From Escherichia coli (GTDB lineage: Bacteria > Pseudomonadota > Gammaproteobacteria > Enterobacterales > Enterobacteriaceae): a stretch of DNA of 64,000 nt. The stretch lies in the NCBI RefSeq assembly GCF_003018255.1, contig NZ_CP027440.1. One strand, written 5' to 3'. The position numbers and the translations under genes are program-made. Under the pieces are notes generated by a model, which made no database searches, was not told the origin of the DNA, and saw nothing but the letters and a program-made list of their open reading frames with translations. Position 1 is the stretch's first letter. Each line of letters begins with the position of its first letter. Below, in pieces: positions 16,325-36,137 of this stretch.

Positions 16325-18548
16325 TTTCGGACTCCAGTTGCGCAACCTGTTCTGGGTTTAAACCTGCTTTGAGTAATAGTGATTGCATCGAAACTTGTAA
16401 TTCGCGTTGAATTGTCAGGACGCGATCCAACGTTTCCTGGCTGATAACGCCTTCGGTGACCAAAAACTTGCCGAGCGGCAGAGAACTGCGTTCATGGCGC
16501 AATAACAACACGTTAATTGCTGAACGATTAATATGACCGAGCGTGGTCAGTATTTCGGCGAACAGGAACTGATGCGGCACATATTGCCGCCAGATTTCAC
16601 CGGCCTGCTGTTCCGTGAGCCACTGATGCTGAACCGCATTGTACAACATTGCCCGCGGGTCGTGACCGCGTCGGCGTGCATACCAGTGACGTAACCCCGT
16701 GACAATTTGTCCGCGCAGAACAATGACGTAACGCACTTTGCGTCCGACTTTACGCGTCAGGGCTGCCAGCGAAACCGGGTCAATACCATCTTCACTGCCG
16801 ACAATTAACTCATCATTTTCCAGACGCAGCGGCAGCACTGCATAATGCAGCGCCACGGAAGCCGGCATTTCGGCAATCAGTGATGAAGGGATCTGCCAGG
16901 CGTCGATCGACTCCCACGCCACGCCGTTTTGCTCTGCCAGCGCCTGTGCCAGCTGTTCGGCGCTAATCAGCCCCTGCATCAGCATTGAACCGCCCAGGCG
17001 TAGACCTTCGACGCGATTACGCAGTGCTGTATCGAGTTGTTCTTCAGTGATGACCTGATTTTCCAGCAGGATTTGGCCTAACGGGCGCAACGAGCGGGTA
17101 TCGCCAGTCACGCTGGGGAAGTCATGCGTTGTTTTATCCCACGCGACGCGACGTGGATCGCCGTGTTGAAGTACCTGTTTTAACGCGCGCCAGTTGGCCA
17201 TGAAGTTAATCAGGTTGCCCCAGAAAAGACGCAGGACAGATAGCAGCCCCTGCGTCAGACCGTAGTAGCCAGTGACAAAAATCACCCGCTGCACGATGCG
17301 GTTAACCATCAAACCAAAGTTTAGCCACAGCAGGGTCATTAACCATGCGCTGCCGCTGAAAATAGAAAGGAAATGCCAGGCATCGGGCCACAAACTTTCA
17401 TACGCCAGTAACAGCAAAAGCTGGATCATCACCAGCATCGCGAGGAAGCTGACAAAGTTACTGATTGCCCCTTTGCGGTCGCGCCAGAGAAAGTAGTTCA
17501 GCGTCAGGCTGGAGGTCCATTTGTGGGTTTTAAAGCCCTGGAAAACAATGCCGATGATCCAGCGAGATTTTTGTCGAACCGCAGTCGAAAAGGTATCGGG
17601 GAAATATTCGCGCACGCAGATCATGTTTGACGTCCGCGCGTGCTGTAAAAATTTACGCTGCTCGCGTTCTTTGGCTTCGTCCACCACCGGAAAACGGACA
17701 AAAATTTCCGTCATACCTTTTTCTTTCAGGCGGAAACCAATGTCGTAATCTTCAGTCAGACTCTGCACGTCGAAAGCAATACCGTCACCGTCAGCTAACA
17801 GTGCGGTCACGGCGCGGCGGCTGAAACAGGTGCCGACGCCTGCGCTGGGCACCTGTCCGGCGAGGGCTTCACGCACCGGAACATCTTTGCCATGCAGTTC
17901 TGAAAACTCATCAATGTAGGTCATGCTGGTGAAGTGCGTCCATTCGCGTTCGAACGGATACACTGGGATCTGAATCAGATCTTTACGCTCGACCAGATAG
18001 TTGAACAGACGCAATTCCATCGGTGAAATCACATCTTCGGCGTCATGCAGAATAAAACCAGCAAAAGCGAAATTGGCGCTACGTTCAAATTGGGTGATGG
18101 CGTCCAGCACGTTGTTCAGACAGTCGGCTTTGCTGGTGGGGCCAGGACGCGCGCAGACTACCTTATGCACGTTCGGGAAGCGAGCGCACACTTCGTCAAC
18201 ATCACGCTGAGTATCGGGGTCGTTGGGGTAGGTGCCAACAAAGATATGATAGTTTTCGTAGTCGAGCGTGGTCGCCGCCAGCTCGGCCATATTGCCGATG
18301 ACGCCCGTTTCATTCCACGCCGGAACCATAATCGCTAACGGTTTTTCATCTGGTTTATACAGTTCGCGGTAACTCATTCGCGGGTAGCGGCGATAAACAC
18401 TCAACTTGCGTTTAATGCGGCGTACCCAGTAGACGACATCAATAAAAAAATCGTCCAGCCCGCTGATGAACATGATGACCGCTAACGTTATCGCGATTAC
18501 TTTTAAGCCGTAGAGCCAGGTAGCAAAAACATCAAGAAGCCAGTCCAC
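16311..18548 (-). CDS. nfrB: bacteriophage N4 adsorption protein B (inner-membrane glycosyltransferase-like)
   Basis: 745-aa ORF, N-terminal TM helix, GT2-like region; overlaps nfrA start. Confidence 0.9.
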   Translation of the reverse strand: MDWLLDVFATWLYGLKVIAITLAVIMFISGLDDFFIDVVYWVRRIKRKLSVYRRYPRMSYRELYKPDEKPLAIMVPAWNETGVIGNMAELAATTLDYENYHIFVGTYPNDPDTQRDVDEVCARFPNVHKVVCARPGPTSKADCLNNVLDAITQFERSANFAFAGFILHDAEDVISPMELRLFNYLVERKDLIQIPVYPFEREWTHFTSMTYIDEFSELHGKDVPVREALAGQVPSAGVGTCFSRRAVTALLADGDGIAFDVQSLTEDYDIGFRLKEKGMTEIFVRFPVVDEAKEREQRKFLQHARTSNMICVREYFPDTFSTAVRQKSRWIIGIVFQGFKTHKWTSSLTLNYFLWRDRKGAISNFVSFLAMLVMIQLLLLLAYESLWPDAWHFLSIFSGSAWLMTLLWLNFGLMVNRIVQRVIFVTGYYGLTQGLLSVLRLFWGNLINFMANWRALKQVLQHGDPRRVAWDKTTHDFPSVTGDTRSLRPLGQILLENQVITEEQLDTALRNRVEGLRLGGSMLMQGLISAEQLAQALAEQNGVAWESIDAWQIPSSLIAEMPASVALHYAVLPLRLENDELIVGSEDGIDPVSLAALTRKVGRKVRYVIVLRGQIVTGLRHWYARRRGHDPRAMLYNAVQHQWLTEQQAGEIWRQYVPHQFLFAEILTTLGHINRSAINVLLLRHERSSLPLGKFLVTEGVISQETLDRVLTIQRELQVSMQSLLLKAGLNPEQVAQLESENEGE

Positions 18549-18699
18549 ACAAAAACCTTACATTAACGCTGGTTATGTTTAGGGTGGCGTATATTAAGGT
18601 TTTTTATGAATTGTGACAGCTTTTTACCATTAATAGGTATGACTATTGCGGCACGTTATTTTTACACTGGTTATAAAAGTTGCCGTTTGCGTAGAATGT

Positions 18700-19900
18700 A
18701 GACAAAAGCGTGGTGTCAAGGAGGGGAGGTTAACGCAGGGAAAGATTACGAAAGCCCGCTCCCAGCAAGGACTGACGCGAGATAGTTTCTGTCCATGGCT
18801 GCTTTTCGCAACTTACGTCTTAACCCTGCCTTGAATACCTTATCATTCGTCAAAATATTAATAGCGATGTGCCGTAGCCCTGAAAATAATTCTGCTGCAT
18901 TTCCTCTTCTTATTTTGCAGTCGTCTTCATTCATTACCACGTCCAGACGCCAGTGCAGCTTATTCTCCACGTGCCAGTGGTTTCGGATTGCTGTGGCGAA
19001 CTTCTCTGCGGTTAAATCAGCAGAACTGATATAATATCTGACCGTCATTTCTGGCTCTTTCTTTTGTTCTGCTATTATTGACCGAAAGGAGACTGCCACG
19101 CATAATTTCTTCAGTCCTTTCCATTCAAACGTGAAATCAATAAGTTCATCAGGGACATCGCAAACAATGTGAAGCCGGATTTCTTCTCTGCCGTGACTCT
19201 TTTCACTAATTGCGTAACTGTCATGCTCTGGATTATTTAATTCTTTCAGTGGGAATTTTTCCTCAAAGGCTTTATTAAGCCGCCCCTGATTTCCTTTTAC
19301 AGCGAATAAATAATCACCGCCCTGTTTTTGTATCTTCTCTGCAATATCTTTCTGGCAACCCATCGCATCAGTTGTGATGATTTTTCCTTTAATATCCAGC
19401 ATGTTAAGAAGTTCTGGGATAGCTGTAATCTCATTAGATTTCTCATCCGTCCTGATCTGTCCGATGACCAGACTGTGCATTGTTGAGAACGCACTAATGA
19501 CATGAATCGCTCCCCTGCGGCGACTCCTGTCATAAGAATGCCGGAGTGTTTTTCCATCGATTGCAATAACGTCTTTATCATCTGAAGTATGGCAATCTCG
19601 CATCCAGTTAATAAAGCACTCGTGAAATTTTGAAGGACTGATACAGGATACAACTCTGGCGATGGTATCGTGAACAGGAATACCATTTTCAAAATCACCA
19701 TATTGTTTTAAAAAATCGAGATGTGTTTCCCCAAAATCCTCTATATCTTCCCAGCCTTCTGCACCAGAAATAACGGCACAAATAGTCAACAGTAGAATAT
19801 CCGACAATTTATGTTCCACTTTCCAGGCTTGTCTGTAATCGGGGATAATAGAAATATGTTCCATCAATTTTTTAAGTTCCATTTTGTTCTCCTTAATTAT
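18700..19900. mobile_element. ISAs1-family (H-repeat) insertion element at the distal end of the Rhs island; boundaries approximate
   Basis: Contains an H-repeat-type transposase ORF; this family is classically found at the end of E. coli Rhs elements. Confidence 0.6.
18746..19882 (-). CDS. ISAs1-family transposase (H-repeat-associated protein)
   Basis: 378-aa [54 protein letters not shown]... typical of H-rpt/YhhI-type transposases. Confidence 0.85.
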
Positions 19901-19908
19901 GTAAGGAG

Positions 19909-20146
19909 TATTTGATCATGTATACGCAATAAAAAACAGCTTCAGGTAATGAGGAATATCTCGATTTTTAAACATAAAATGCGAATTACTTAGTACAAAA
20001 AATGTACTTCTGATGATCTTTCCCTGGTATTTGATCATGTATAAGCAATAAAAAACAGCTTCAGGTAATGAGGAATATCTCAATTTTTAAACATAAAATG
20101 CGAATTGTTTAGTACAAAAAAGCAGCGTTACGTGATCTTTCCCTGG
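19909..20146. repeat. tandem duplication, 2 x 119 bp, next to the H-repeat transposase start
   Basis: tatttgatcatgtatacgcaataaaaaacagcttcaggtaatgaggaatatctc... repeated at 19909 and 20028; copies diverge in their last third. Confidence 0.85.
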
Positions 20147-20230
20147 TGCAGGAACTGAGGAAGGAACTTTATCAGGTTAAACAGGTGGTGAAGGGAATGA
20201 AGAACGGGATATCCGGCGTATTACGCGAGG

Positions 20231-20266
20231 TATAAAAATAAAAGCCGGGAGATTGTCACTCCCGGC
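20231..20266 (-). terminator. candidate intrinsic terminator after the orphan immunity gene
   Basis: Hairpin gccgggag...ctcccggc followed on the minus strand by a T-rich run (ttttatttttat). Confidence 0.5.
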
Positions 20267-20272
20267 AACATA

Positions 20273-20554
20273 TTATTTTTTTATTTCATTATATCTGATA
20301 AAAAAAGTATTTAGCGCATCATGTTCATCTTGTGAGAACAATAAAATAATTTTATCCCATGAATGTCCTGTTACTCCATAATAGTCTTCAATATAAGATT
20401 GAAGCCTTATTAATATCTCAATATTGACGATTTCTTTTGGCTCTCTCATTTGCCATCCATCCAGGAAAGCTTTTAACGCCGATATGGTATGCCTGCTTAA
20501 ATATAAAGCTGGTCTTTTTTCTATCATATCAATCAGTTTAACAATATCATTCAT
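20273..20554 (-). CDS. putative immunity protein for the orphan Rhs toxin tip (RhsI-like)
   Basis: 93-aa AT-rich ORF starting 2 nt after the toxin-tip stop; position is the only evidence. Confidence 0.5.
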   Translation of the reverse strand: MNDIVKLIDMIEKRPALYLSRHTISALKAFLDGWQMREPKEIVNIEILIRLQSYIEDYYGVTGHSWDKIILLFSQDEHDALNTFFIRYNEIKK

Positions 20555-20556
20555 AA

Positions 20557-21180
20557 TTAAAACCTTGATGGAGTAATGGTGTATTCGCCAGGAGAGTATA
20601 TATCATTCAGCCAATCTTCATACTTTATACCAGAAGGATTCATATTATCAAAAACTGTATCACCTACTTTTATTGCTTCATGATGACCATTAGTTGCTAT
20701 ATTTTTACCTATTCTATCACTCCATATATTGCCAAAGGCACCTTGTTTATTTTTAGTTTCGAGTATGAGATGCTCACCATTTACCCCAGCTTGTTGCATT
20801 TTACTTTTTAACGCTGCGGCAAATTTATCGCATTGAAAAAGCTGTTTAAACTTATCACTTATTGTTGTTGCAAGATCCCTTGTTTTTGCGATATCGCAAA
20901 TGGTTAATCCTAATGGATCAATATAACCAAGGGGATTATGAACATATGCATAATTGTTTATCCCGCCTCTCAGCCCTATCGGGTCACTCACCAGGTACAT
21001 CCCTGTTTCCGGCTCGTAATACCGGAACCGGTTATAGCACAGCCCGGATTCCGTATCCTGCCACTGTCCTGCATACAGCAGGCCGGGGTCGGGGTCGGCT
21101 TCCGGGTCCAGCTCCCCGCGCGGGTCCGGGTAGCCGGTGTCTGCGGGCAGACTGAGTGCCAGCCCCCACAGGCTGGTTTG
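20557..21180 (-). CDS. orphan Rhs C-terminal toxin cassette (conserved PxxxxDPxGL junction plus about 115-aa variable toxin domain of unknown activity)
   Basis: In frame with orphan core fragment after an in-frame TGA; contains YYEPETGMYLVSDPIGLRGG...NPLGYIDPLGL then an AT-rich divergent tail. Confidence 0.65.
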   Translation of the reverse strand, partial: QTSLWGLALSLPADTGYPDPRGELDPEADPDPGLLYAGQWQDTESGLCYNRFRYYEPETGMYLVSDPIGLRGGINNYAYVHNPLGYIDPLGLTICDIAKTRDLATTISDKFKQLFQCDKFAAALKSKMQQAGVNGEHLILETKNKQGAFGNIWSDRIGKNIATNGHHEAIKVGDTVFDNMNPSGIKYEDWLNDIYSPGEYTITPSRF

Positions 21181-22476
21181 TCACGGTCGCCACACGGTTT
21201 TACCTTCACTGTTAAAGAGCATCAGCGGACGGCCCGTCAGGTCGCTCACCGCATGATTCGTCCGCGTCACCCACTGCGGGGCCACCGACGGATGCGGCTG
21301 CCGTACCCGGCTGCACTGCTGGCTTATCAGCTCAAAGCCGTTAAACACCAGGTGCCGTACGCTGTACAGTTTATCATCGCGGTATTCCCGGATTTCCGCA
21401 ATATTGTCGCCGTCCCACAGGTACGTAAAACGGATTTTCTTCCGGTCGCAGCGTTTTTCCGTCCGCCTGCCGCTGGCGTCGTAGCGGTATTCCCACTGCT
21501 CACCCTGTGCGCTGCAATACCCGGTCAGCTGGTCACGGCTGTCCCACCGGAACCGCTCTGTTTCCGGGCGGTAGCCGTCACGGTGTCTGGTGCGGCTGAC
21601 CATCCGGCCTGCGGCGTCATAGTCATACTGCGTGTTTCCGGCCTGTTTCAGCCGGTGGCCTCCGGCATACTGGTCAGTCTCTTCACTTATCCGGTGCCTG
21701 CCCGCAGACTGCGCCTTCAGGTAGCCACAACTGTCATAGCCATAGGACTCATCGCCTTCGCCATAGCCCAGCCCGGTGCCTGAGGCTGTCACCGCCGTGA
21801 CCTGACCGTTCCGGTCCAGCCGGTATTCCCGCCGTGTTTCCCGTCCGTAATCTTCCCGGCTGGTGACAGCCGACACATTGCCCGCGCTGTCGTAACGGTA
21901 CTCCCGTACCAGTGAGGGGAGCAGCCCGCCCCATGTGGTTTCCTCCGGGAAAAATCCGGCGCGCTGGGTGACAAGCTGGCTGGCTGCATTCCAGCCCTGC
22001 TCACAGGCAAAACCCCGGTTACTGTGCCGGAGCACTTCACGTCCTGCCTCATCACGGCTGAACGTCAGCGTCTCATCCCCCGGCAGGATAACCTCCGTCA
22101 GTTCTCCGGCGGCGTTGTAGCGGTAGGTGGTTTTCAGCAGGGATTCACCGGGATGTCTGTCGCGTTCATCTTCCGGTGGCAGGATACAGCGGATGACGGT
22201 GTGTTCATCGGGGTAGTGGTATTCAATGGCCCGTCGGCCCTGAGTGGTGACATTCACCCGCCCGCGTTCGTCATAGCCGGTGCGCTGTGATGTGCCGTCC
22301 GGGCTGAAGATACCCGTCAGCCTGCCGGATTTGTCATACGCATACTGCGTTTTGCCTTCCGGCGTGATGACTTCTGCCAGGCGGCCTGCGGCGTCCCGGC
22401 TGTAGAGGATGGTTTCCTCCAGACCGTTAACCCTGGCGGTACACAGGCCATCGGCGTCATAGCGGTAACGCCAGGC
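21181..22476 (-). pseudogene. orphan rhs core 3' fragment (no start or N-terminus), near-identical duplicate of the 3' core of the main rhs gene
   Basis: About 1.3 kb near-identical at DNA level to 23589-24884; YD-repeat translation; homology to main copy ends at about 22476. Confidence 0.8.
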
Positions 22477-22503
22477 TACTCCGTTGTACCCAGCTCATAG
22501 AAT

Positions 22504-22926
22504 TTATCTAGCAATTTGTATTAAGGGGGTTTCACCCACATGTTTTAATAAACTCATTAACCAGATGGCCTCTTCTCTCGTTCCGGAGTATATTACCTTC
22601 GATTCATTTCTAATAATTCGAAGTGCTTCTTTTGTATCAATCGAAAAAGCCTTACGAATGACTTTTATAGTTTCCATCTGTGATTTTATATTTTCAAGTC
22701 TAACATTCCATAAACCCTCAAAATCAATCAATTGTAGACGAATTTTTTCTGGGGGAAAGCCTATATCATCTGATTCACTACGTAATCCGCAATTATGGCA
22801 TATAATTGATTCATACCATGCGAGTATACCATTGTGACTCGTCTGCCCTATAGCTATAGAACATATTTTTCCACAGCAAGGACACTCAATAGTCGTTTTA
22901 AATTCATCACCAAACACTATAACCAC
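22504..22926 (-). CDS. putative immunity protein for the main Rhs toxin (RhsI-like), Cys-rich zinc-ribbon-like N-terminus
   Basis: 140-aa ORF overlapping the toxin stop; CPCCGKIC ... CHNCG cysteine pairs. Confidence 0.55.
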   Translation of the reverse strand: MVIVFGDEFKTTIECPCCGKICSIAIGQTSHNGILAWYESIICHNCGLRSESDDIGFPPEKIRLQLIDFEGLWNVRLENIKSQMETIKVIRKAFSIDTKEALRIIRNESKVIYSGTREEAIWLMSLLKHVGETPLIQIAR

Positions 22927-23588
22927 CCTCTCATCCGCTTATATCTTCGAATCGTCTCGTAAAATTTCTGTTCCATCTCAGTACCTTTGGGATGATGATC
23001 ATTCAATCCTCGCTTCCACCACCTATGATGTAATTCTTCATGAATAATAACATCTCTTAATGCTGCACGAGACGAAAAACTATTTTTACCAAACTGAGTT
23101 CCTTCCCAAAGTTTAGCAATCCCTGTTCGCATAAACGGATTGTATTGAGGGATATATGTTAGTTTAAGATATGCAAAATCTTCTTTAAGTATGGCTGTAA
23201 TTGCCTTATTTCTGGCTCTGGCCGTAGAACCTGTAACATGACCGAGATCAGAAACATAAGTCTGTGGCCCTCTAGAAAACTCGACTGTTTTATTAATTAT
23301 ACTAGTTATAGCTAATCCCAGCGGATCAACATACCCACACGGATTAGGCACATACCGGTAAGTCTGCTCACCCCCCAGCAACCCCAGCGGATCACTCACC
23401 AGGTACATCCCTGTTTCCGGCTCGTAATACCGGAACCGGTTATAGCACAACCCGGATTCCGCATCCCGCCACTGTCCTGCATACAGCAGGCCGGGGTCGG
23501 GGTCGGCTTCCGGGTCCAGCTCCCCGCGCGGGTCCGGGTAGCCGGTGTCTGCGGGCAGACTGAGTGCCAGCCCCCACAGGCTGGTTTG
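22917..23588 (-). CDS. C-terminal extension of main Rhs protein: PxxxxDPxGL junction plus about 130-aa toxin domain with HExxH motif
   Basis: Same frame as Rhs core, separated by TGA at 23589-23591; translation ...[20 protein letters not shown]...VDPLGL then ...[13 protein letters not shown]... Confidence 0.65.
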   Translation of the reverse strand, partial: [223 protein letters not shown]

Positions 23589-26500
23589 TCACGGTCGCCA
23601 CACGGTTTTACCTTCACTGTTAAAGAGCATCAGCGGACGGCCCGTCAGGTCGCTCACCGCATGATTCGTCCGCGTCACCCACTGCGGGGCCACCGACGGA
23701 TGCGGCTGCCGTACCCGGCTGCACTGCTGGCTTATCAGCTCAAAGCCGTTAAACACCAGGTGCCGTACGCTGTACAGTTTATCATCGCGGTATTCCCGGA
23801 TTTCCGCAATATTGTCGCCGTCCCACAGGTACGTAAAACGGATTTTCTTCCGGTCGCAGCGTTTTTCCGTCCGCCTGCCGCTGGCGTCGTAGCGGTATTC
23901 CCACTGCTCACCCTGTGCGCTGCAATACCCGGTCAGCTGGTCACGGCTGTCCCACCGGAACCGCTCTGTTTCCGGGCGGTAGCCGTCACGGTGTCTGGTG
24001 CGGCTGACCATCCGGCCTGCGGCGTCATAGTCATACTGCGTGTTTCCGGCCTGTTTCAGCCGGTGGCCTCCGGCATACCGCTCAGTCTCTTCACTTATCC
24101 GGTGCCTGCCCGCAGACTGCGCCTTCAGGTAGCCGCAGCTGTCATAGCCATAAGTCTCATCGCCTTCGCCATAGCCCAGCCCGGTGCCTGAGGCTGTCAC
24201 CGCCGTGACCTGGCCGTTCCGGTCCAGCCGGTACTCCCGGCGTGTTTCCCGTCCGTAATCTTCCCGGCTGGTGACACCTGACACGTTACCCGCGCTGTCG
24301 TAACGGTACTCCCGTACCAGTGACGGAACCAGCCCGCCCCATGTGGCTTCTTCCGGAAAAAATCCGGCGCGCTGGCTGACAGGCTGGCCGGCTGCATTCC
24401 AGCCCTGCTCACAGGCAAAACCCCGGTTACTGTGCCGGAGCACTTCACGTCCTGCCTCATCACGGCTGAACGTCAGCGTCTCATCCCCCGGCAGGATAAC
24501 CTCCGTCAGTTCTCCGGCGGCGTTGTAGCGGTAGGTGGTTTTCAGCAGGGATTCATCGGGGTGTCTGTCGCGTTCATCTTCCGGTGGCAGGATACAGCGG
24601 ATGACGGTGTGTTCATCGGGGTAATGGTACTCAATGGCCCGTCGGCCCTGAGTGGTGACATTCACCCGCCCGCGTTCGTCATAGCCGGTGCGCTGTGATG
24701 TGCCGTCCGGGCTGAAGATACCCGTCAGCCTGCCGGATTTGTCATACGCATACTGCGTTTTGCCTTCCGGCGTGATGATTTCTGCCAGGCGGCCTGCGGC
24801 GTCCCGGCTGTAGAGGATGGTTTCCTCCAGGCCGTTAACCCTGGCGGTACACAGGCCATCGGCGTCATAGCGGTAACGCCAGGTCACGCCGCCCCAGTCA
24901 TGCTCTTCCGTCACCCGCCCACAGTTGTCGAGAAGATAACGGTATGACTCACCCTGCGGGTTGATGACTTCTGTCAGTTGCAGCGTGTCTTTATCATAGC
25001 GGTACTGCCAGCGGTGGCCTTCACCGTCCGTTCGCGCCACCGGCAAATCAAACGGGCCGTATTCCATTGTCCAGACAACGCCGTTACCGTCCGTGTACGC
25101 CAGCAGGTTGCCGTGGCGGTCATAGCGGAATCCTTCTGCGCCGGTTCCTGCCCGCTCAAGGCCGCTCAGTTTATGGTGCTGCTGCCACTGCAACCGCACT
25201 GACTGACCGCCGGGGCCGCGCATCTTCACCGGCAGGTCGTGACCACTGTATTCGGTGTGGTGTTCACGGCCCATCACGTCGGTGAGTGTTTCCGGCCGGT
25301 TGTGGTGGTCGTACTCTATGCCCAGACGCCGTTCATCCTGGCGGAATATCCCCGACAGCAGCCCCTGAGCGGTGTACGCCAGCCGGGTCTCTTCGCCCTG
25401 TGGCGATACCAGACTCACCGGCAGGCCGCGTTCATCGCACTGCTGTGTCCACGTCTGCCCGGCAGGGTCGGTGATGTTGCTGAGCAGGCCGCGCTCATCA
25501 TAGCGGTACAACCACACCGCGCCGTCTGCCGCCGTATAACGGCTTAACTGACCGTGTACGGCGTTGTATTCAAATTTCTCCACCCGTCCGGCAGGGGAGT
25601 GGCGGGCCAGCAGGTGATGGAATTCATCCCATTCATACGTGGTGGTGCTGCCGTCCGGCGCTTCTTCCCGCAGAATATTGCCGTCAGGATCATAGTAATA
25701 ACGGTGAATGCCCTTGCCGTCCGTCACGGTGGTGCAGCCGTCACTATAGTCCAGCGTGGCGTTGTAATAGCCGTCCGCCCCGGTGACATTCACGCACCGG
25801 CCCTGTTCATCGTAGGTGAAACGGCTCCACGTCTGGTCGTTATCGGACCAGCGGATGATCCGGTCCGCAGCGTCGTACTCATAAAACAGGTGGTAGTCCA
25901 GCCGCGCATCCGCTTCGGTCAGCCGCCCCCGCGCATCCTGTTCGTAGGTCGCCAGCGTCTGTATGCCGTTATCCGTGCGGTGAATGGCTTTCAGGTAGCC
26001 GCTGGCGTGGTACGTCAGTTTAAGCCGGATCCCGTCGGTGTGACTGACACCCGTGATGCGGTACTGGCTGTCGCGCTCAAACGTGATGCGGTTGCTGGCG
26101 GTGTCGCTCATCCCGCCCAGCATGTACATCCGGTCACCGGGGCTGTGTGCCAGGCGGTCATCATTGGTATCGTCAGTCACCGGGTGGCGCAGGCGCATTC
26201 CCGGAAAGGCGTCATAAAAGAAGCGGCTGCTCAGGGCATCACGGTCGAACAGCTCCAGGTAATCGTCGCGGCGGCGCAGGATATACTGGGCGTGATACGG
26301 GTTAACCGCCGTATCACTGTCTCCGTCGAAGGCAAAGTACAGCGTGGCTCCCTGGCTGATGATATCCACCCGGTTTCCCTGTTCACGCACCCAGGCGTAT
26401 TCGCTCCAGGAGTCGCTCCAGCCCACGCCCGTCAGGCCATGCAGTGGCAGTACAGAACTGTGGAAACGGGTGAAGGAGAGGGGGAGTGTCTGGCCCAGCG

Positions 26501-27728
26501 TAAAGTCGGTACGTTCGTCGCAGTATGCGCCGGTTACCGGATCGACAGGATCTGTTACCCATCTGATGACTTTATTGGCAATACTTTTTAACGACTTACC
26601 TGTTTTCCCCAGCAACGCGCCGAGCTTTGCCCCCAGCAGCTTCCCGCTTTTCCCCAGCAGGTTTCCCAGTTTGCCGAGTTTCGCCAGATTCCCCAGTTTT
26701 CCCAGCAGTCCCGCGGGCGGCAGAAGATAGCTGGCTATCGTTATTCCCCCCAGGATCATTCTCTGCCACGGCGGGAACTCCGGCTGGATATCCAGATAGG
26801 TCACCTGTTCACCGCCAATAAAGACGTCCGGCGAACCTTCCACGATTGCCGCGCTGCACTCCAGTTTGTCGCCCTTGCGCGCGGCAGGCTGATTGTTGAT
26901 AAAGACGTTGCTGCTGCCCTGGGCTATCCTCGGTGGTTTGTTCTCCTTGTCGCAGAGCGCCGTGTCCTCACCGGCTTCCGGGAAATCCACGTCTTTTTTG
27001 ATTTCGCCACGCCCGCCCACCATGGTGGCAAACTCCATTAATACCGGACCGGCGGGAAACAGAAGCGATGCGCCGGCGCTGACGCGATCCATAATACCGG
27101 CATTGCTGTCCGTCAGGGTGATAACAGCGTTCCCCCAGGCCTTCGCCAGTGGCACTGCTTTTTCCGCTGCCGATTCAAGCAGGTCAGTGGCAATATCCCC
27201 CCATGAAGGTTCCCCCTGTGGTGGAGAGGGTATTGCTTCAGTCAGGGGAGGAGGGGGAAGGGTGACGGCGGCCCTGGCTGCTGGCTTACCGTTAATTTTT
27301 ACGTTTTCAGAACCGGTATTGATGGCGCCGTCCGTGTCACAAAAACTGTTTATCCATGACTCAAGCTGGTTCTGTTTCTCCTCCACATAATCACTCGCCT
27401 TATAGCTGGCATACATCAGCGCAGGCACCAGAACCAGCGCATAAGGGCCGGTGGCGCAGGCGGCCATAATCAGGCAACCTTCTGCGATAGTTACTATCGC
27501 CCCCAGCACGGCCCCTGCCAGTGCCCCCAGAAAACTTTTATGCTGAATTTCATCGCCCAGCCTGGCGGCAGGTGGGCCGGACTTCTTTGCTGCCAGCATC
27601 TGTGCAATGGCTTTGTCGTTGGCTGCCCGTTTCATCTGGCTGGCGACCATCGCCTGCTGTGACAGCATTCGCATTGCCAGCGTACCGCCTGCGGTCGCTC
27701 CCTGTGGGCCGCCTGGTCCTTCACTCAT
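23589..27728 (-). CDS. prePAAR/PAAR-domain Rhs repeat protein (T6SS effector core with YD-repeat shell)
   Basis: 1379-aa ORF; prePAAR motif [10 protein letters not shown] near N-terminus, PAAR motif ([14 protein letters not shown]), many YD repeats (YRYD, YEYD, YDxxGR); ORF ends at in-frame TGA before the DPxGL region. Confidence 0.9.
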   Translation of the reverse strand: [1379 protein letters not shown]

Positions 27729-27747
27729 GTGTTATCCCTCGTTTATG

Positions 27748-28209
27748 TCAGCGCGGCTGGTCCTTTTGGATGTCATTCTCCGGTGGCAACGGGGTGAAGC
27801 TCTTTATCACCTCCAGCAGCATCGTCTTTTGACTGTTCTTCAGGGATAAGGAGGTGCTGAAAGTGAAGGTCAGCAGCGTATCTCCACGCCGCTGGAATAC
27901 GGCTATCTGGTCAATCCGTCCCTGGTTCCCCTCATCTTCCGGACCGTTCCAGGAATAATCCAGCAGCCAGGCCGGGGCCTCTGCCAGAGTGATTTCCCGG
28001 CAGGCATGTTCGGTGTACCCATCAAGTTTGCCCTGGTACAGCGCCAGCGTTTCCTGGTACAGCTCTGGTGTCAGGGTTCCCTGTGGAACGGCTTCGCGGG
28101 TAATGACCAGGTTGATGCCACTGTTATCTGTGGACACCAGGACCTGCATTGACTGATCCTGCCATTGCGATGGCAGCTGAATATGACCTTCATTAAAAGT
28201 GAACTGCAT
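27748..28209 (-). CDS. DUF1795/Eag-family effector chaperone (inferred)
   Basis: 153-aa ORF between vgrG and the prePAAR-Rhs gene; size and position typical of Eag chaperones for prePAAR effectors. Confidence 0.65.
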   Translation of the reverse strand: MQFTFNEGHIQLPSQWQDQSMQVLVSTDNSGINLVITREAVPQGTLTPELYQETLALYQGKLDGYTEHACREITLAEAPAWLLDYSWNGPEDEGNQGRIDQIAVFQRRGDTLLTFTFSTSLSLKNSQKTMLLEVIKSFTPLPPENDIQKDQPR

Positions 28210-28236
28210 AAAATACTCCCTGATAATCTGAATGAA

Positions 28237-30138
28237 TCAGTTGATGAAAACAGAACCGCCCACGATGGTGATGCCATCCTTCGACAGCCTGATTACCGTC
28301 GATTCCCCGACCTGTAGCTGAATGCCATCCGGCGTCAGCGCAATTTTGCTTTCCTCCACGGCCAGCATAATTTGCTTAATTGCCGTATAAGCCTGTATAC
28401 CGTCGCCTTCGCCACCATTGTTTACAGCGTCAACATGCACTGAACCGGCAATCGTGCCTCTGTCCTGAAAAACATCCTCAGATAAAGACCCTTTTAGTAC
28501 GCCTGTGATTTTGTGGCCTTTTTCCACCGTAAGAAGGCGGTTACCTTCCTGGATCATGACCGTCTGGTCATTTTTTACGGTTTCGCGGTGATCGTGTTTT
28601 ACGGTGGTGGTACGGTCGTTGAGTACCTCGGTATCCATGTTCTTCTGGGCGTGGATGTAGACCTGTTCTTTCCCTGTCGCATCGTCAAACTTCAGCTCGT
28701 TAAACCCGCTGCCCATATATGTTTTGGAGCGGATGGTCATCTGCGTCTTCGTTCCCGGCAGGCTGCCCGGCGAGCGGTTATCTTCGTGGTAGGTGCGCCC
28801 CATAATGATCGGCTGGTCCGGATCGCCGTTGAGGAAGTCCACAATCACCTCCTGACCCACGCGCGGTATCGCCAGGTTGCCAAATCCCGGCCCCGCCCAC
28901 GCCTGCGCCACCCGTATCCAGCACGAACTGTCCTGATTGGCCGGGTTATAGCGGTCCCAGTTGAATTTCACCCGCACCCGGCCATGCTCGTCGCAGAAGA
29001 TTTCCTCTCCCGCAGGCCCCGTCACGACGGCGCTCTGCGGACCGTCCACTGACGGCTTTGGCTTCGGCTGAGGTCGCCACGTCCGGTCTGCCGGTATTAC
29101 CGCAAAGTGGTTATTCAGCGTGGTACCTGACCCCCTGCGTCCCGGCACCGCCTGCGGCTGTTCGCCGTGCAGTTCGCTCGCCACCACCTGCCATTCCCGG
29201 TTCAGGTTCGCCTGCGGATGCTCCGTCAGCACAATTCGCCGTCCAGGCCATATCTCCGGCGAGCGGCTCATTCCCCGCGCGGTTTCGGCGTTGTTTCGCC
29301 AGCCGTCCATCTGCCAGCGGGCAAAGTTCTGCCCGTGGGCGCTCTTGAAACGCCCGGGCCAGTCATACACTTCATACTGTGTGCGCTGGTAATCCTGATG
29401 CTGGCCTTCCTGGTCAAAACGTCCGGCCCAGCCGGGGCGTTTAAAGGTGTAGTCTTTGGTCACCACAGAGGAAGGACGGATTTGTGCGCTGTAGCGGAAC
29501 TGGCTGATGCAGAGGGTGCTCACCTCGGTACGGGTGTTCGGGTTCCAGGGGATTTCAAAGGATTCCGGCAGATAGCGGACCGTGTCGCACAGCACCAGAC
29601 TCTGGTCGGTACTTTTCTGCGCGTGCTCCTCATAGAAGAAGATGCCTTCCTCCGCTGCTATCCGGCAGAGAAAGTCGTAATCGGTTTCACCGTACTGGAC
29701 ACAAAACTCACGGGAAGGATGCGGCTCACTGAACAGCGGGCTCCACTCCGTGACGTCATTTTCCTGCAGTATGGTGCCGAGGATGCTTCTGATGTCCTCG
29801 TTCTGGAATATACGGAAGTTCTGACGCAGTCCTGCCCGCCACAGCGGCGGGCGCACCTTCATGCTGTACAGCATCTGGTTTTTGTCGTTCTCCCCGAGTT
29901 CAAACCAGGTCACCACGCCTTTCACCCGGCGCTGTACGTCATCGCCCTGCCATACCGTCAGGTAGGCCATTTTGTCCAGCACCTGCGCAAATTCAAGGGA
30001 GAGAAACTGCTGACTGACCAGAGAAAGGTCAAGGGAAAAAAGTGAAGAGAGTGACTGGGTGAGATGAAAGGAGACCACCGCAAAAGCGTCCGGTGGCAGG
30101 CCGTCCACTTCCAGTGTGAAACGTAATCCGGTTGACAT
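28237..30138 (-). CDS. vgrG: type VI secretion spike protein VgrG
   Basis: 633-aa ORF starting MSTGLRFTLEVDGLPPDAFAVVSF... with gp27/gp5-like regions and C-terminal beta-helix repeats. Confidence 0.9.
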   Translation of the reverse strand: MSTGLRFTLEVDGLPPDAFAVVSFHLTQSLSSLFSLDLSLVSQQFLSLEFAQVLDKMAYLTVWQGDDVQRRVKGVVTWFELGENDKNQMLYSMKVRPPLWRAGLRQNFRIFQNEDIRSILGTILQENDVTEWSPLFSEPHPSREFCVQYGETDYDFLCRIAAEEGIFFYEEHAQKSTDQSLVLCDTVRYLPESFEIPWNPNTRTEVSTLCISQFRYSAQIRPSSVVTKDYTFKRPGWAGRFDQEGQHQDYQRTQYEVYDWPGRFKSAHGQNFARWQMDGWRNNAETARGMSRSPEIWPGRRIVLTEHPQANLNREWQVVASELHGEQPQAVPGRRGSGTTLNNHFAVIPADRTWRPQPKPKPSVDGPQSAVVTGPAGEEIFCDEHGRVRVKFNWDRYNPANQDSSCWIRVAQAWAGPGFGNLAIPRVGQEVIVDFLNGDPDQPIIMGRTYHEDNRSPGSLPGTKTQMTIRSKTYMGSGFNELKFDDATGKEQVYIHAQKNMDTEVLNDRTTTVKHDHRETVKNDQTVMIQEGNRLLTVEKGHKITGVLKGSLSEDVFQDRGTIAGSVHVDAVNNGGEGDGIQAYTAIKQIMLAVEESKIALTPDGIQLQVGESTVIRLSKDGITIVGGSVFIN

Positions 30139-30881
30139 AGCAACCTCCGTGAAAATGAATAATAATCCGCATATATTGCATGTACAACATGTCGGGTAAT
30201 GAGATAAGCGGGCCGGCTTCAGGCGTTACCGGGGAATATCAGAAAAGTGTCATGGTTATGTGATGATTTTGTCCGGGATTTTACTTCAGAGAAACGGGGG
30301 GCTGTTGACTCAACAAAATAATCACAAACTCAACTGACGGGTTCACGATGTTATTAAGGACAGGCTCGTATATTACATCGAGTAACAAAAAAACACCTGA
30401 TATGCAAAGTCAAACCAATATTTGTAATGTCTTTTTATTCACAATAATAAATAACTCAATAAACATTATTGAAATGAATGATGGTTTGTATAAGGAATAT
30501 ACGCTACCGCCCCACCCTGATAACATGATCTGCACATTGCTATCTTAACGTCGTTAGACGCTGGCTTAATAGTGAATATTTTAAATTAGGAATTTATCAA
30601 GTTCACTTGATAAATAGACCGCGTGAATAATATAGAGATTAATGATGCCTGACTGCGCTTTATATTATAGCCGATTCTTTTATAGTGATGAAAATTTAGT
30701 AATAGCATTGTGCTCTACAATTGGTAGAAACACGAATTTAATTAAATTGCATATCTAAATATCTCGTAAATATCCGAAAATGAATAACCTTCGATTTCAG
30801 ACGACCAATAAGGTCTTCCCTGTTTTATTGATAAATAATAACAGAAGGCGATACATCACTCTTTGAGTTTGAACTAACTAA

Positions 30882-32330
30882 TTAACCTTTCTCCGGTAGT
30901 TTGATCATAAACCTTGTCCCCCGAGCATCTGACGTTACTGCAACCGTGCCTTTATGCGCGACAACAATCGATTTCACTATCGCCAGGCCAATACCGCTAC
31001 CTTCGCCTTTTCGCTGACGGGAGGGGTCAACGCGATAGAAACGGTCAAACAATCGCGGTAAGTGCTCGGGCGCAATGGGCGTACCGGGGTTTTCGACGGT
31101 AACTTGCACCAGGTGATCGACCGTCTGGCAGCGCACGACAATTGTCTCTCCGGTTGGCGTATAACGCAGGGCATTAGAAAGCAGGTTGCTTAACGCCCGA
31201 CGCAGCATCAGCGGATCGCCCGCAACCTGACACTCGTCGCCAACAAACCGCAGCTCCACGCCGCGATCTTCTGCTAACGCCTCGAAAAAATCGAACACTT
31301 TGCCGACTTCATCCGCCAGGTTGAGCATTTTCTTTTCGGGGATTAGCTGGTTGTTATCGGCCTGAGCGAGAAACAGCATATCGCTGACCATTTTCGCCAT
31401 TCGCGTCAGCTCTTCGAGATTAGAGTAGTGCACATCTTCCAGCTCCTTCTGGCTGCGCGACTGGCTGAGGGCGATTTCCGTTTGCGTAATGAGATTAGTA
31501 ATAGGTGTGCGAATTTCGTGGGCGATATCCGCTGAGAAATTGGACTGGCGGGTAAAGACATCCTCAATACGCTCGATCATATGGTTGAACGACAGTACCA
31601 GCTGTTCCAGCTCAATGGGCACGGTCTGCGGGTCAAGGCGAACGTCGAGATCTTTCGAGGTAATGTTCTGGATTTGACGGCTGACGCTGCGGATCGGCGC
31701 GTGACCTTTATGTACCGCCAACAGCACGATAAAGACGATCAGGATGCTGATTACCGATGCGGTCATAATAAGTTTATTCATCAAATCATTTATGTAATGA
31801 AGATGAAAATCGATCGAAAGCGCAATGTAGAGCGTATAAATCGGTTTGCCGTCCACCAGTGGGCCAACCGGCAAGCTAATCATCCGCCAGTTGCTGTGTT
31901 CCATATGCCCGTGACCGTGGCCCGGCATCATCATCGTCGGGCCGGAAAGGAGATACACCTCGCCGCCCTGCGCGTCTTTATCGGGTATGGCGTCACGCGT
32001 AAACTCGCGGATATCCGGCGCTCCGGGGGAGTGATACACCGTTTTACCGTGGCTATTTGCCAGGGAGATCAACACATTGGAATAACCACTGACGATATCT
32101 TCCAGCGTCATTAAGCGTCGGGCTTGCGTTTCGTCAGGGTGATTAAGTACCCGTTCAAGGGTGGCGCTAATCTCCTTTAAATCATTAATATCCTGCTCGG
32201 CAAAATGCACTTTTACCGAGTGGATCATGATCCATGCAAAGGCGAAAAACGCCGCGATGGTGGCGAGGCTGATAAAAAAGGTCAGGCGGGTTGCCAGCGA
32301 AAACGGGCGCTGAAATGGCTTACTGACCAT
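30882..32330 (-). CDS. cusS: copper/silver-sensing histidine kinase
   Basis: 482-aa ORF with two TM segments, periplasmic domain, HisKA (H-box [10 protein letters not shown]) and ATPase domains. Confidence 0.93.
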
Positions 32331-33003
32331 CCGGCACCTCTAGCATGTAACCCACGCCGCGCACGGTTTGAATCAGCTTCGGCTCAAAGTCGTTGTCGAT
32401 TTTGCCACGCAGCCGCTTCACCGCCACATCAATGGCGTTAGTGTCGCTGTCGAAATTCATGTCCCACACCTGTGAGGCAATAAGTGAGCGGGGCAGTACT
32501 TCGCCCTGATGGCGAAGGAAAAACTCCAGCAGAGTAAATTCTTTACTGGTCAGAGTGATGCGCGTGCCACTGCGGGTGACTTTGCGGCTGACGAGATCGA
32601 CCATCAGATCGGCAACCTGAAACTGACTTTCGATAATCACCGCCGCCCCGCGCCGCAGTAGAGTGCGCACCCGCGCCAGCAGTTCAGCAAAAGCGAACGG
32701 CTTCACCAGATAGTCATCCGCCCCCAACTCCAGCCCCTTGACGCGATGTTCAATGGTGCCAAGCGCGGTAAGCAACAGAATCGGCATCCCCTTATTGGCG
32801 GAACGCAACATGCGCACGATATCCCAGCCGTTCACGTCCGGCAGCATAATATCGAGGATTATCAGATCATAATCACCGGTCATCGCCAGATGGTAGCCAT
32901 TCAGCCCGTTGTCGGCCAAATCGACCACAAAACCGGCTTCGGTTAACCCTTTGGTCAAGTATTCTCCGGTTTTCTTTTCATCTTCGACAATCAACAGTTT
33001 CAT
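32320..33003 (-). CDS. cusR: copper/silver response regulator (OmpR family)
   Basis: 227-aa [19 protein letters not shown]..., receiver plus winged-helix domains, overlaps cusS start. Confidence 0.95.
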
Positions 33004-33068
33004 ATTTCCTCCGCATGTTGCCCGGGCAATTCTAGAGTAGCGGGATCAGATGGCAATCGCTTATTGGC

Positions 33069-33090
33069 AAAATGACAATTTTGTCATTTT
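33069..33090. promoter_or_regulatory. CusR box in the divergent cusR-cusC intergenic region
   Basis: Perfect palindrome aaaatgacaattttgtcatttt. Confidence 0.75.
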
Positions 33091-33159
33091 CCTGTCACCG
33101 GAAAATCAGAGCCTGGCGAGTAAAGTTGGCGGCATAAAATCACCAGAAATTATGAGCCT

Positions 33160-34542
33160 ATGTCTCCTTGTAAACTTCTGCCATTTTGTGTGGCCCTTGC
33201 GCTAACCGGTTGTTCACTGGCACCGGATTATCAGCGCCCGGCAATGCCCGTGCCGCAGCAGTTCTCACTCAACCAGAACGGCCTGGTTAACGCAGCAGAT
33301 AACTACCAGAACGCGGGCTGGCGCACCTTTTTTGTTGATAATCAGGTGAAGACGCTGATTAGCGAGGCGCTGGTGAATAACCGGGATTTGCGCATGGCGA
33401 CGCTGAAAGTGCAGGAAGCGCGGGCGCAATATCGTCTGACCGATGCCGACCGCTACCCACAGCTCAATGGCGAGGGCAGCGGCAGCTGGAGCAACAATCT
33501 TAAAGGCGATTCAGCCACGACGCGGGAGTTCTCGACTGGCCTTAACGCCAGCTTTGATCTCGATTTTTTCGGGCGCTTAAAGAACATGAGCGAAGCCGAG
33601 CGCCAAAATTATTTAGCCACTGAGGAAGCTCAGCGCGCGGTGCATATTTTGCTGGTTTCTAATGTCGCGCAAAGCTATTTCAATCAGCAGCTGGCGTATG
33701 CGCAATTGCAAATAGCCGAAGAAACGCTGCGTAATTATCAGCAGTCATATGCGTTTGTCGAAAAACAACTGTTGACAGGTAGCAGTAATGTTCTGGCGCT
33801 GGAACAGGCTCGCGGGGTGATTGAAAGTACCCGCAGCGACATCGCTAAACGTCAGGGGGAACTGGCGCAGGCGAATAATGCATTGCAACTGTTATTGGGA
33901 AGCTACGGCAAGCTGCCGCAAGCGCAGACAGTAAACAGCGACAGCCTGCAAAGCGTTAAATTACCGGCGGGCTTGTCGTCGCAAATCTTATTGCAGCGCC
34001 CGGATATTATGGAAGCTGAACATGCGTTAATGGCGGCTAATGCCAATATTGGTGCTGCACGCGCGGCATTTTTCCCGTCTATCAGCCTGACCAGCGGAAT
34101 ATCAACCGCCAGCAGCGATCTGTCGTCATTATTTAACGCCAGCAGCGGGATGTGGAATTTTATACCCAAAATTGAGATCCCCATTTTTAATGCCGGACGT
34201 AACCAGGCCAATCTGGATATCGCCGAAATTCGCCAGCAGCAGTCGGTGGTGAATTATGAACAGAAAATCCAGAACGCCTTTAAAGAAGTGGCAGATGCGC
34301 TGGCATTACGTCAAAGCCTGAACGATCAAATTAGCGCCCAGCAGCGTTATCTGGCGTCGCTGCAAATTACTTTGCAACGGGCGCGGGCATTATATCAGCA
34401 CGGCGCGGTAAGTTATCTGGAAGTGCTGGATGCTGAGCGTTCTTTATTTGCAACCCGACAAACTTTACTTGACCTGAATTATGCCCGTCAGGTTAATGAA
34501 ATTTCTTTATATACCGCCTTAGGCGGCGGTTGGCAGCAATAA
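33160..34542 (+). CDS. cusC: outer-membrane factor of the Cus copper/silver efflux system
   Basis: 460-aa ORF MSPCKLLPFCVALALTGCSLAPDY... (lipoprotein signal, TolC-like). Confidence 0.95.
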   Translation: MSPCKLLPFCVALALTGCSLAPDYQRPAMPVPQQFSLNQNGLVNAADNYQNAGWRTFFVDNQVKTLISEALVNNRDLRMATLKVQEARAQYRLTDADRYPQLNGEGSGSWSNNLKGDSATTREFSTGLNASFDLDFFGRLKNMSEAERQNYLATEEAQRAVHILLVSNVAQSYFNQQLAYAQLQIAEETLRNYQQSYAFVEKQLLTGSSNVLALEQARGVIESTRSDIAKRQGELAQANNALQLLLGSYGKLPQAQTVNSDSLQSVKLPAGLSSQILLQRPDIMEAEHALMAANANIGAARAAFFPSISLTSGISTASSDLSSLFNASSGMWNFIPKIEIPIFNAGRNQANLDIAEIRQQQSVVNYEQKIQNAFKEVADALALRQSLNDQISAQQRYLASLQITLQRARALYQHGAVSYLEVLDAERSLFATRQTLLDLNYARQVNEISLYTALGGGWQQ

Positions 34543-34565
34543 TTTTTAACTCCAGGAGAGAATAA

Positions 34566-34898
34566 ATGAAAAAAGCACTGCAAGTCGCAATGTTTAGTCT
34601 GTTTACCGTTATTGGCTTTAATGCCCAGGCTAACGAACATCATCATGAAACCATGAGCGAGGCACAACCACAGGTCATTAGCGCCACCGGTGTGGTAAAA
34701 ACCATTGATCTGGAAAGCAAAAAAATCATCATCCACCACGATCCAATTACCGCGGTGAACTGGCCGGAGATGACCATGCGCTTTACCATCACCCCGCAGA
34801 CGAAAATGAGTGAAATTAAAACCGGCGACAAAGTGGCGTTTAATTTTGTCCAGCAGGGCAACCTTTCTTTATTACAGGATATTAAAGTCAGCCAGTAA
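34566..34898 (+). CDS. cusF: periplasmic copper/silver chaperone
   Basis: 110-aa ORF with signal peptide and metal-binding Met/His/Trp residues. Confidence 0.95.
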   Translation: MKKALQVAMFSLFTVIGFNAQANEHHHETMSEAQPQVISATGVVKTIDLESKKIIIHHDPITAVNWPEMTMRFTITPQTKMSEIKTGDKVAFNFVQQGNLSLLQDIKVSQ

Positions 34899-34913
34899 CC
34901 CAGGTTTAATGAG

Positions 34914-36137
34914 ATGAAAAAAATCGCGCTTATTATCGGCAGCATGATCGCGGGCGGTATTATTTCTGCGGCAGGTTTTACCTGGTTTGCAAAGGCGGAA
35001 CCGCCCGCAGAAAAAACGTCGACCGCAGAACGTAAAATCTTATTCTGGTACGACCCGATGTATCCCAATACGCGGTTCGATAAACCAGGTAAATCGCCGT
35101 TTATGGATATGGATCTGGTGCCGAAATATGCCGATGAAGAGAGTTCTGCGTCTGGTGTACGCATTGACCCGACCCAGACGCAGAATCTGGGGGTGAAAAC
35201 GGCGACCGTAACGCGCGGGCCGCTGACTTTTGCCCAGAGTTTCCCGGCGAATGTCAGTTACAACGAGTATCAGTATGCCATTGTGCAGGCTCGCGCTGCC
35301 GGGTTTATCGATAAGGTGTATCCGCTTACCGTGGGCGATAAAGTACAAAAGGGCACACCGCTTCTCGACCTGACCATTCCCGACTGGGTGGAAGCGCAGA
35401 GTGAGTATTTACTGCTGCGCGAAACCGGCGGTACGGCGACCCAGACTGAAGGCATTCTTGAGCGACTGCGACTGGCGGGAATGCCGGAGGCGGATATTCG
35501 CCGCCTGATTGCCACGCAAAAAATCCAGACTCGCTTTACGCTCAAAGCACCCATTGATGGCGTGATCACCGCGTTTGATCTGCGCGCGGGAATGAATATC
35601 GCCAAAGATAACGTGGTCGCGAAAATTCAGGGTATGGACCCGGTGTGGATCACTGCCGCGATCCCGGAGTCCATCGCCTGGCTGGTGAAAGATGCCTCGC
35701 AGTTTACGCTCACCGTTCCGGCGCGACCTGATAAAACACTCACCATTCGCAAATGGACCCTGCTACCCGGCGTGGATGCCGCGACCCGCACGCTGCAGCT
35801 GCGTCTGGAAGTCGACAACGCCGACGAGTCGCTAAAACCGGGCATGAACGCCTGGTTGCAACTCAATACCGCCAGCGAACCGATGCTGCTCATTCCGTCA
35901 CAGGCGCTGATTGATACCGGCAGTGAACAGCGGGTGATTACCGTTGATGCCGACGGACGCTTTGTACCGAAACGCGTTGCCGTTTTCCAGGCATCGCAAG
36001 GCGTCACCGCGTTACGCTCTGGTCTGGCGGAAGGTGAAAAGGTGGTTTCCAGCGGCCTGTTCCTGATTGATTCCGAAGCCAATATTTCTGGCGCACTGGA
36101 GCGGATGCGCTCTGAAAGTGCTACCCATGCGCATTGA
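34914..36137 (+). CDS. cusB: Cus efflux membrane fusion protein
   Basis: 407-aa ORF; operon position between cusF and cusA. Confidence 0.95.
   Translation: MKKIALIIGSMIAGGIISAAGFTWFAKAEPPAEKTSTAERKILFWYDPMYPNTRFDKPGKSPFMDMDLVPKYADEESSASGVRIDPTQTQNLGVKTATVTRGPLTFAQSFPANVSYNEYQYAIVQARAAGFIDKVYPLTVGDKVQKGTPLLDLTIPDWVEAQSEYLLLRETGGTATQTEGILERLRLAGMPEADIRRLIATQKIQTRFTLKAPIDGVITAFDLRAGMNIAKDNVVAKIQGMDPVWITAAIPESIAWLVKDASQFTLTVPARPDKTLTIRKWTLLPGVDAATRTLQLRLEVDNADESLKPGMNAWLQLNTASEPMLLIPSQALIDTGSEQRVITVDADGRFVPKRVAVFQASQGVTALRSGLAEGEKVVSSGLFLIDSEANISGALERMRSESATHAH

Follow-up and report, generated by a model that had tools for sequence, protein, structure and literature searches.

How did the left end of an H-rpt insertion sequence come to stand twice at the distal end of an Rhs toxin locus? 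The question is raised by a 64,000-nt stretch of an Escherichia coli genome (contig NZ_CP027440.1), referred to here as the window, in which a first-pass annotation had described a 119-bp tandem duplication abutting the transposase gene of an H-repeat, and had considered for it a duplicated IS terminal or promoter region as well as a recombination scar.

Two 119-bp units at the end of an H-rpt element

The two units lie on the minus strand at 19908-20026 and 20027-20145 and are identical at 106 of 119 positions in an ungapped comparison; Tandem Repeats Finder likewise returned 19908-20147 with a period of 119, 2.0 copies and a score of 399. Two 119-nt units at 89% identity are far beyond chance, and the consecutive copies seen at first pass are thus confirmed. 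The 13 mismatches between the units fall at unit positions 18, 56, 81, 82, 96-99, 101 and 103-106, i.e., two within the first 80 nt and 11 within the last 39 nt, which bears out the earlier description of about 80 near-identical base pairs followed by a diverged last third. The placement upstream of the transposase ATG also holds, with the distance corrected from 27 bp to 26 nt by the coordinates of the ORF on the minus strand, so that the unit spans -26 to -144 relative to this ATG. GT is found at both repeat boundaries (19908-19909 and 20146-20147), and the only ambiguity in the extent of the repeat is the 2-nt GT overlap at 20146-20147. The copy-to-copy junction is unbroken in three independent complete assemblies (DETEC-S792, JNE23-011 and JNE112863), which excludes an assembly artefact. 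A 55-aa ORF on the minus strand (19916-20083) runs across both units; it owes its existence to the duplication alone and is probably spurious.

We set the termini of H-rpt by aligning six loci with unrelated flanks and by inspecting nine H-rpt copies. H-rpt similarity stops at …CTTTCCCTG on the left and starts at CAGGG on the right, and the copy-to-copy junction, CTTTCCCTG followed by GTATTTG at 20026/20027, lies exactly on this independently defined IS terminus. Since the copy boundary coincides with the terminus, 18736-20026 (minus strand) is a complete, inner element of 1,291 bp with both termini present, and 20027-20145 is an orphan end. H-rpt copies at five other loci show the same extent of 1,290-1,292 bp. 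The earlier reading of the repeat as an IS terminal region is therefore correct, the unit being the standard H-rpt left terminus including the terminal inverted repeat.

The two units end differently: the inner one, the left-terminal 119 bp of the complete element, carries what we call a B-type end (…TGTACTTCTGATGATCTTTCCCTG), and the outer one, the left-terminal 119 bp of a presumed former resident H-rpt, an A-type end (…GCAGCGTTACGTGATCTTTCCCTG). CAGGGAAAGAT is present at 18736, and two reverse complements of it end at 20026 and 20145. The right terminal inverted repeat (18736-18760, plus strand) matches the reverse-complemented A-type left end at 20 of 25 positions and the B-type at 15 of 25; the terminal inverted repeats of the element begin with CAGGG, and the right one and the B-type left end are identical over their first 11 nt. 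On the minus strand, the inner, B-type left inverted repeat (20002-20026) ends at the copy-to-copy junction, and the outer, A-type one (20121-20145) marks the true outer limit of IS-derived DNA, the identity among unrelated loci ending at CCCTG.

The element belongs to the H-rpt/ISEc1-like members of the ISAs1 family. It is about 1.3 kb long, and a single intact ORF of 378 aa (18746-19882, minus strand; RefSeq 'ISAs1 family transposase') fills most of it, with Pfam matches to DDE_Tnp_1_assoc (7.5e-34) and DDE_Tnp_1 (2.5e-30), both above their gathering scores. H-rpt was reportedly described by Zhao et al. in J Bacteriol in 1993. Members of the ISAs1 family generate a target-site duplication of 8-10 bp; none was found flanking the inner or the outer element, nor at any of eight other H-rpt copies inspected. 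The copies lacking one include those with the window flanks at 18736 and 20145 and those at loci L003, L004, L005, L007, L010 and L013. The missing duplication weakens any claim of a recent simple insertion and leaves the family membership of the sequence unaffected.

Two end types and a mosaic body

The outer unit as a whole is identical (119/119) to the left end of the H-rpt in EC476, and ordinary H-rpt ends set in other flanking sequence match its last 60 nt at 100%. The B-type inner end is a rarer natural variant present in 107 genomes, where it forms a normal single end, for example at yafV in 2014C-3338, ybfD in TUM1226 and yhhI in DETEC-S792. The unit is well conserved among H-rpts except for its last 25 nt, and the base at unit position 18, a C in the inner copy, is diagnostic of lineage and sorts with the end type. 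Judged by these matches, the two units are two different natural H-rpt end variants and not sister duplicates. The differences between them are clustered, each copy matches a different lineage and the boundary falls at the IS terminus, none of which is the pattern of a simple tandem duplication; the initial notion of a tandem duplication with later divergence is thus abandoned.

A collection of 5,426 complete E. coli genomes, with roughly 24,000 H-rpt places, was then used to judge how common the doubling is. A 721-nt query spanning the region matched 5,334 of these genomes, in which the unit normally stands once per element at the H-rpt left end; in each of the 36 single-copy rows sampled, query positions up to 445-448 fell on about 316-338 bp, which corresponds to one unit. 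An 86-nt query covering the junction was contiguous in only three genomes of the collection, DETEC-S792, JNE23-011 and JNE112863, and four further full-coverage matches proved to be permuted two-piece matches to single units. The region shares 99.8% identity over 6.4 kb with JNE112863 and JNE23-011 and, in its repeat part, 100% with DETEC-S792. The unit is hence a standard single-copy H-rpt terminus, and its doubling is limited to one narrow lineage. The comparison with other H-rpt ends that the first-pass annotation had proposed accordingly yields a standard unit, yet one that is single-copy in essentially all other genomes, so that the refuting condition named there did not arise, and the doubling stands as a peculiarity of this lineage.

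The body of the complete element also has two ancestries. The B-type H-rpt at the yhhI/RhsB locus of DETEC-S792 differs at 17 positions from the right 380 nt (18736-19115, minus strand) but at only three from the left 911 nt (19116-20026, minus strand; Fisher p = 3e-7), and two of these three are private to the window. The reverse holds against the A-type H-rpt next to symE in strain 104, with four differences in the right 380 nt and 33 in the left 911 nt (Fisher p = 0.01). A database search with the right 380 nt returned the lineage itself, then three individual strains at 99.2-99.5% and then the symE-adjacent A-type class at 99.2%. By this distribution of differences, the complete element is a mosaic of two H-rpt copies, its left tract going with the H-rpt at yhhI in this strain lineage and its right tract being of putative 'resident' ancestry. 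This candidate donor, the B-type copy at yhhI, is present in all three junction-carrying genomes. The yhhJ/yhhI locus of DETEC-S792 has, besides this complete B-type H-rpt (L007 1781-3071), a partial A-type one (1156-1733) 47 bp away, which is oriented alike and whose transposase gene is truncated. A different mosaic is seen at nfrB in strain AF40, whose H-rpt combines a B-like body with A-type sequence over its left 270 nt; the labels 'resident' and 'incoming' are ones that we infer, because H-rpt copies clearly exchange sequence by recombination, as the AF40 mosaic illustrates.

The Rhs locus and the history of the doubled end

According to RefSeq, the gene order in DETEC-S792 runs from cusS through vgrG, a DcrB-like gene and the main Rhs gene with its immunity gene to three orphan Rhs-CT/immunity modules, a symE fragment, the ISAs1-family transposase gene, nfrB and nfrA, which is the order of a classical Rhs element with an H-repeat at its distal end. 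The distal end of this vgrG-Rhs island between cusS and nfrB is shared with only four of the 5,426 genomes. In the DETEC-S792 annotation, internal stops or partial status are given for the main Rhs gene and for the orphan Rhs core fragments (window ~21000-36000; L009 7592-20521). The last orphan module (20273-21000, minus strand) consists of a papain-fold Rhs C-terminal toxin (20557-21000) and its immunity gene (20273-20554), as given by the ORFs and the RefSeq annotation. Between the immunity gene and the symE fragment, a terminator scan detected a G+C-rich hairpin (20244-20266; eight pairs, seven of them G-C) with T-runs on both sides.

The symE fragment (20146-20235, plus strand) is the 3' remnant of a SymE-family toxin gene, comprising the last 29 codons and the stop, and is cut at the outer IS terminus, as determined by alignment with the full gene of strain 104; RefSeq calls it a partial gene, and this call begins 18 nt inside the IS end. 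In AF40 the remnant is 36 nt shorter. Taken with the truncation at the exact terminus, this extra loss has the look of serial IS-adjacent deletion. A different arrangement is found in 82 genomes, exemplified by strain 104 (L003 2667-3004), where the A-type left end lies 7 nt upstream of a full-length symE-family gene and the IS end replaces the native upstream region of that gene. Inside this SymE-family gene, Rfam places the sRNA isrA in antisense orientation (L003 2746-2874) at 117.6 bits against a gathering score of 51.

Given the anatomy of the region, its two H-rpt lineages, the junction at the exact terminus, the mosaic and the rarity of the arrangement, we propose that transposase probably attached a B-type H-rpt terminus to a point 119 bp within an A-type H-rpt already resident there, and that the two copies were then collapsed by homologous recombination. 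The starting point would be an A-type H-rpt at the locus with its left end facing the symE-family gene as in strain 104, and an adjacent deletion would have removed most of symE before the second H-rpt arrived. The newcomer would have been a B-type H-rpt that the genome had copied from its yhhI/RhsB locus, or had in common with it; the transposase would have linked the left terminus of this element, oriented like the resident, to a position 119 bp in from the resident's left end. The two 1.3-kb bodies would have formed direct repeats, and a homologous crossover between them near 19115-19199 would have eliminated one, leaving a complete mosaic element (18736-20026) together with the orphan 119-bp left end of the resident (20027-20145). 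We infer from the geometry of the junction and from the comparative evidence that transposase made the joint, that the events took this order and that recombination resolved the two copies.

The region carries the marks of a nested-IS footprint, with a junction at the exact IS terminus, an orphan end and an intact element from different copies, and a mosaic body with a candidate donor in the same genome. The best match of the right 380 nt (99.2%) to the class abutting full-length symE is what a resident copy should show. No target-site duplication would be seen where one element entered the other, because the proposed recombination would remove the second junction. On the other hand, no H-rpt copy inspected has such a duplication, so that classical transposition of H-rpt is not demonstrated here, and according to one paper no transposition activity has been observed for the H-repeat (PMC3032704). 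Neither an unresolved intermediate with two full H-rpt copies at nfrB, where four genomes carry the locus, nor a precursor with a single A-type H-rpt joined to a long symE remnant at nfrB was found in the 5,426-genome collection. AF40, the sole other genome with this locus outside the junction carriers, has a different stacked arrangement (an A end, a 25-nt B-type end and the shorter symE remnant), and at least three extra events would be needed to link it with the window structure. The suggestion at first pass of a recombination scar at the end of the Rhs element survives these comparisons, the region being best read as a recombination/transposition scar at the distal Rhs end with the orphan end at the exact IS terminus.

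The same exact-terminus junction would also be produced by a one-step intramolecular event, in which a B-type H-rpt lying next to the A-type copy on the nfrB side, and oriented alike, attacks that copy 119 bp from its left terminus and deletes the intervening DNA, and which would make a later homologous recombination unnecessary for the junction. Rhs loci do hold paired, directly oriented H-rpts with orphan modules or short spacers between them, as in strain 104 and at yhhI of DETEC-S792, and both the cut of symE at the outer terminus and the 36-nt loss in AF40 resemble such adjacent deletions. However, it does not in itself account for a 4.5% divergence from the yhhI copy in the right 380 nt next to near-identity in the left 911 nt, so that a separate recombination would be required all the same, and we regard this route as unlikely. 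Slippage or unequal exchange at the 2-nt GT microhomology, followed by conversion of the inner copy by a yhhI-type element, draws on the GT at both boundaries, on the evidently frequent gene conversion among H-rpt copies and on a perfect tandem of an A end and a 25-nt A-type end known elsewhere (L010, 2014C-3075). Yet it requires the duplicated segment to end on the IS terminus by chance and the conversion tract to stop within the last 13 shared nt, since donor and recipient have no homology past CCCTG, and no precursor with an A end and a 119-nt A-type unit exists in the 5,426 genomes; we consider it very improbable.

We also examined whether the additional unit could affect expression, as the first-pass annotation had supposed. 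A promoter scan of the repeat region returned three sites against 3.1 expected by chance, none convincingly placed; on the minus strand just one promoter-like site lies near the unit, and its -10 hexamer falls against the ribosome-binding site. Rfam at a permissive threshold gave no RNA family in 18500-21200, the only hit being a meaningless Ssr1 fragment at 16 bits against a gathering score of 820. The transposase gene retains its native 144-nt upstream region, with the extra unit further upstream. A selected regulatory duplication, with the unit as a transposase promoter, leader or sRNA whose two copies alter expression of the transposase or its neighbours, could appeal to the position of the unit at -26 to -144 and to its conservation among H-rpts up to the last 25 nt, but is hardly credible given promoter-like sites no commoner than in shuffled sequences, a -10 set against the ribosome-binding site, an empty Rfam search and confinement to one narrow lineage in which two of the three junction-carrying database genomes have the transposase gene annotated with an internal stop. 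The proposed duplicated promoter with an effect on transposase or downstream expression is accordingly not supported. Structurally, the second, outer left terminus creates alternative units of 1,291 and 1,410 bp and places the element 119 bp farther from the symE remnant; most likely the extra copy does nothing today. The best reading of the doubled 119 bp remains the scar of one mobile element landing in another rather than a regulatory device.

Stacked ends at other loci and relation to known systems

Stacked left ends of a similar kind recur at other loci and lend support to the proposed history. Orphan left ends of 25 nt, the length of the inverted repeat, lie directly outside complete left ends at four loci, in all type combinations. 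An A end with a perfect 25-nt A-type end occurs in 2014C-3075 (L010 2247-2296; 19 genomes), a B end with a 25-nt A-type end at the yafV locus of 2014C-3338 (L005 2536-2585; eight genomes), an A end with a 25-nt B-type end in AF40 at the same nfrB locus as in the window (L002 2642-2691; one genome), and an A end with a variant of the 25-nt B-type end at the RhsE locus of strain 190 (L012 2531-2581 and 2729-2828; at least 16 genomes). Beyond this variant, strain 190 also has older end remnants of ~20 nt and ~78 nt. The constant length of 25 nt suggests a hot spot, and its exact reappearance in stacked ends at several Rhs loci hints that H-rpt tends to target itself.

Widespread at the yafV locus is the diverged right-end relic of an older H-rpt (L005 1238-1270; L011 836-892), and in 2014C-3338 the complete H-rpt abuts this relic after 29-32 nt, so that right ends are stacked there too. 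We considered whether the stacked ends of 2014C-3338 could instead represent an insertion into a 54-nt mini-element made only of inverted repeats. No empty site was found with a joined-flank query of the 5,426 genomes, and this reading was rejected because the right-side remnant belongs to the old, widespread H-rpt relic at yafV.

It is conceivable, and we raise it tentatively, that H-rpt has been recently active, with its ends preferentially joined into the terminal 25-120 bp of resident H-rpt copies (self-targeting by the inverted repeat), and that the resulting footprints record turnover at distal Rhs toxin loci. If so, the footprint in the window would be both the youngest and the longest of them, and one whose donor can still be recognized within the genome. 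In our searches of the literature on H-rpt, Rhs, ISAs1 and ISEc1, we found no description of self-targeting by H-rpt or of the structure of H-rpt ends. The junction and the near-identical donor copy in the same genome provide indirect evidence that H-rpt ends were joined to new DNA recently in E. coli. The doubled end itself, though real, is an ordinary structural scar in which an intact IS end has an orphan one stacked against it, and knowledge of the Rhs toxins themselves is unchanged by it. For annotation, 20027-20145 should be labelled an orphan IS end, with no weight given to the 55-aa ORF or to the extended symE call that reaches into the IS end.

Insertion sequences that lie nested in one another, and the solo ends left when homologous recombination resolves them, are a general IS phenomenon, and adjacent deletions promoted by an IS are known for IS1 and IS10. 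With the former, the window shares an intact element that abuts a colinear terminal fragment of another copy at the exact terminus, and a mosaic body; here, however, the target is the element's own family, and the target point at several other loci always lies 25 nt from the terminus. With the latter, it shares the cut of symE precisely at the IS terminus and the 36-nt further loss in AF40, whereas the putative deletion endpoint in the window lies inside another copy of the same IS. The closest relatives are the H-rpt/ISEc1-like elements at the distal ends of E. coli Rhs loci, which have the same 1,291-bp extent, CAGGG termini and a single 378-aa DDE transposase and share with the element in the window a place downstream of orphan Rhs toxin/immunity modules. 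The element in the window differs from these other H-rpts in its doubled left-terminal 119 bp, a feature common to only three of 5,426 complete genomes.
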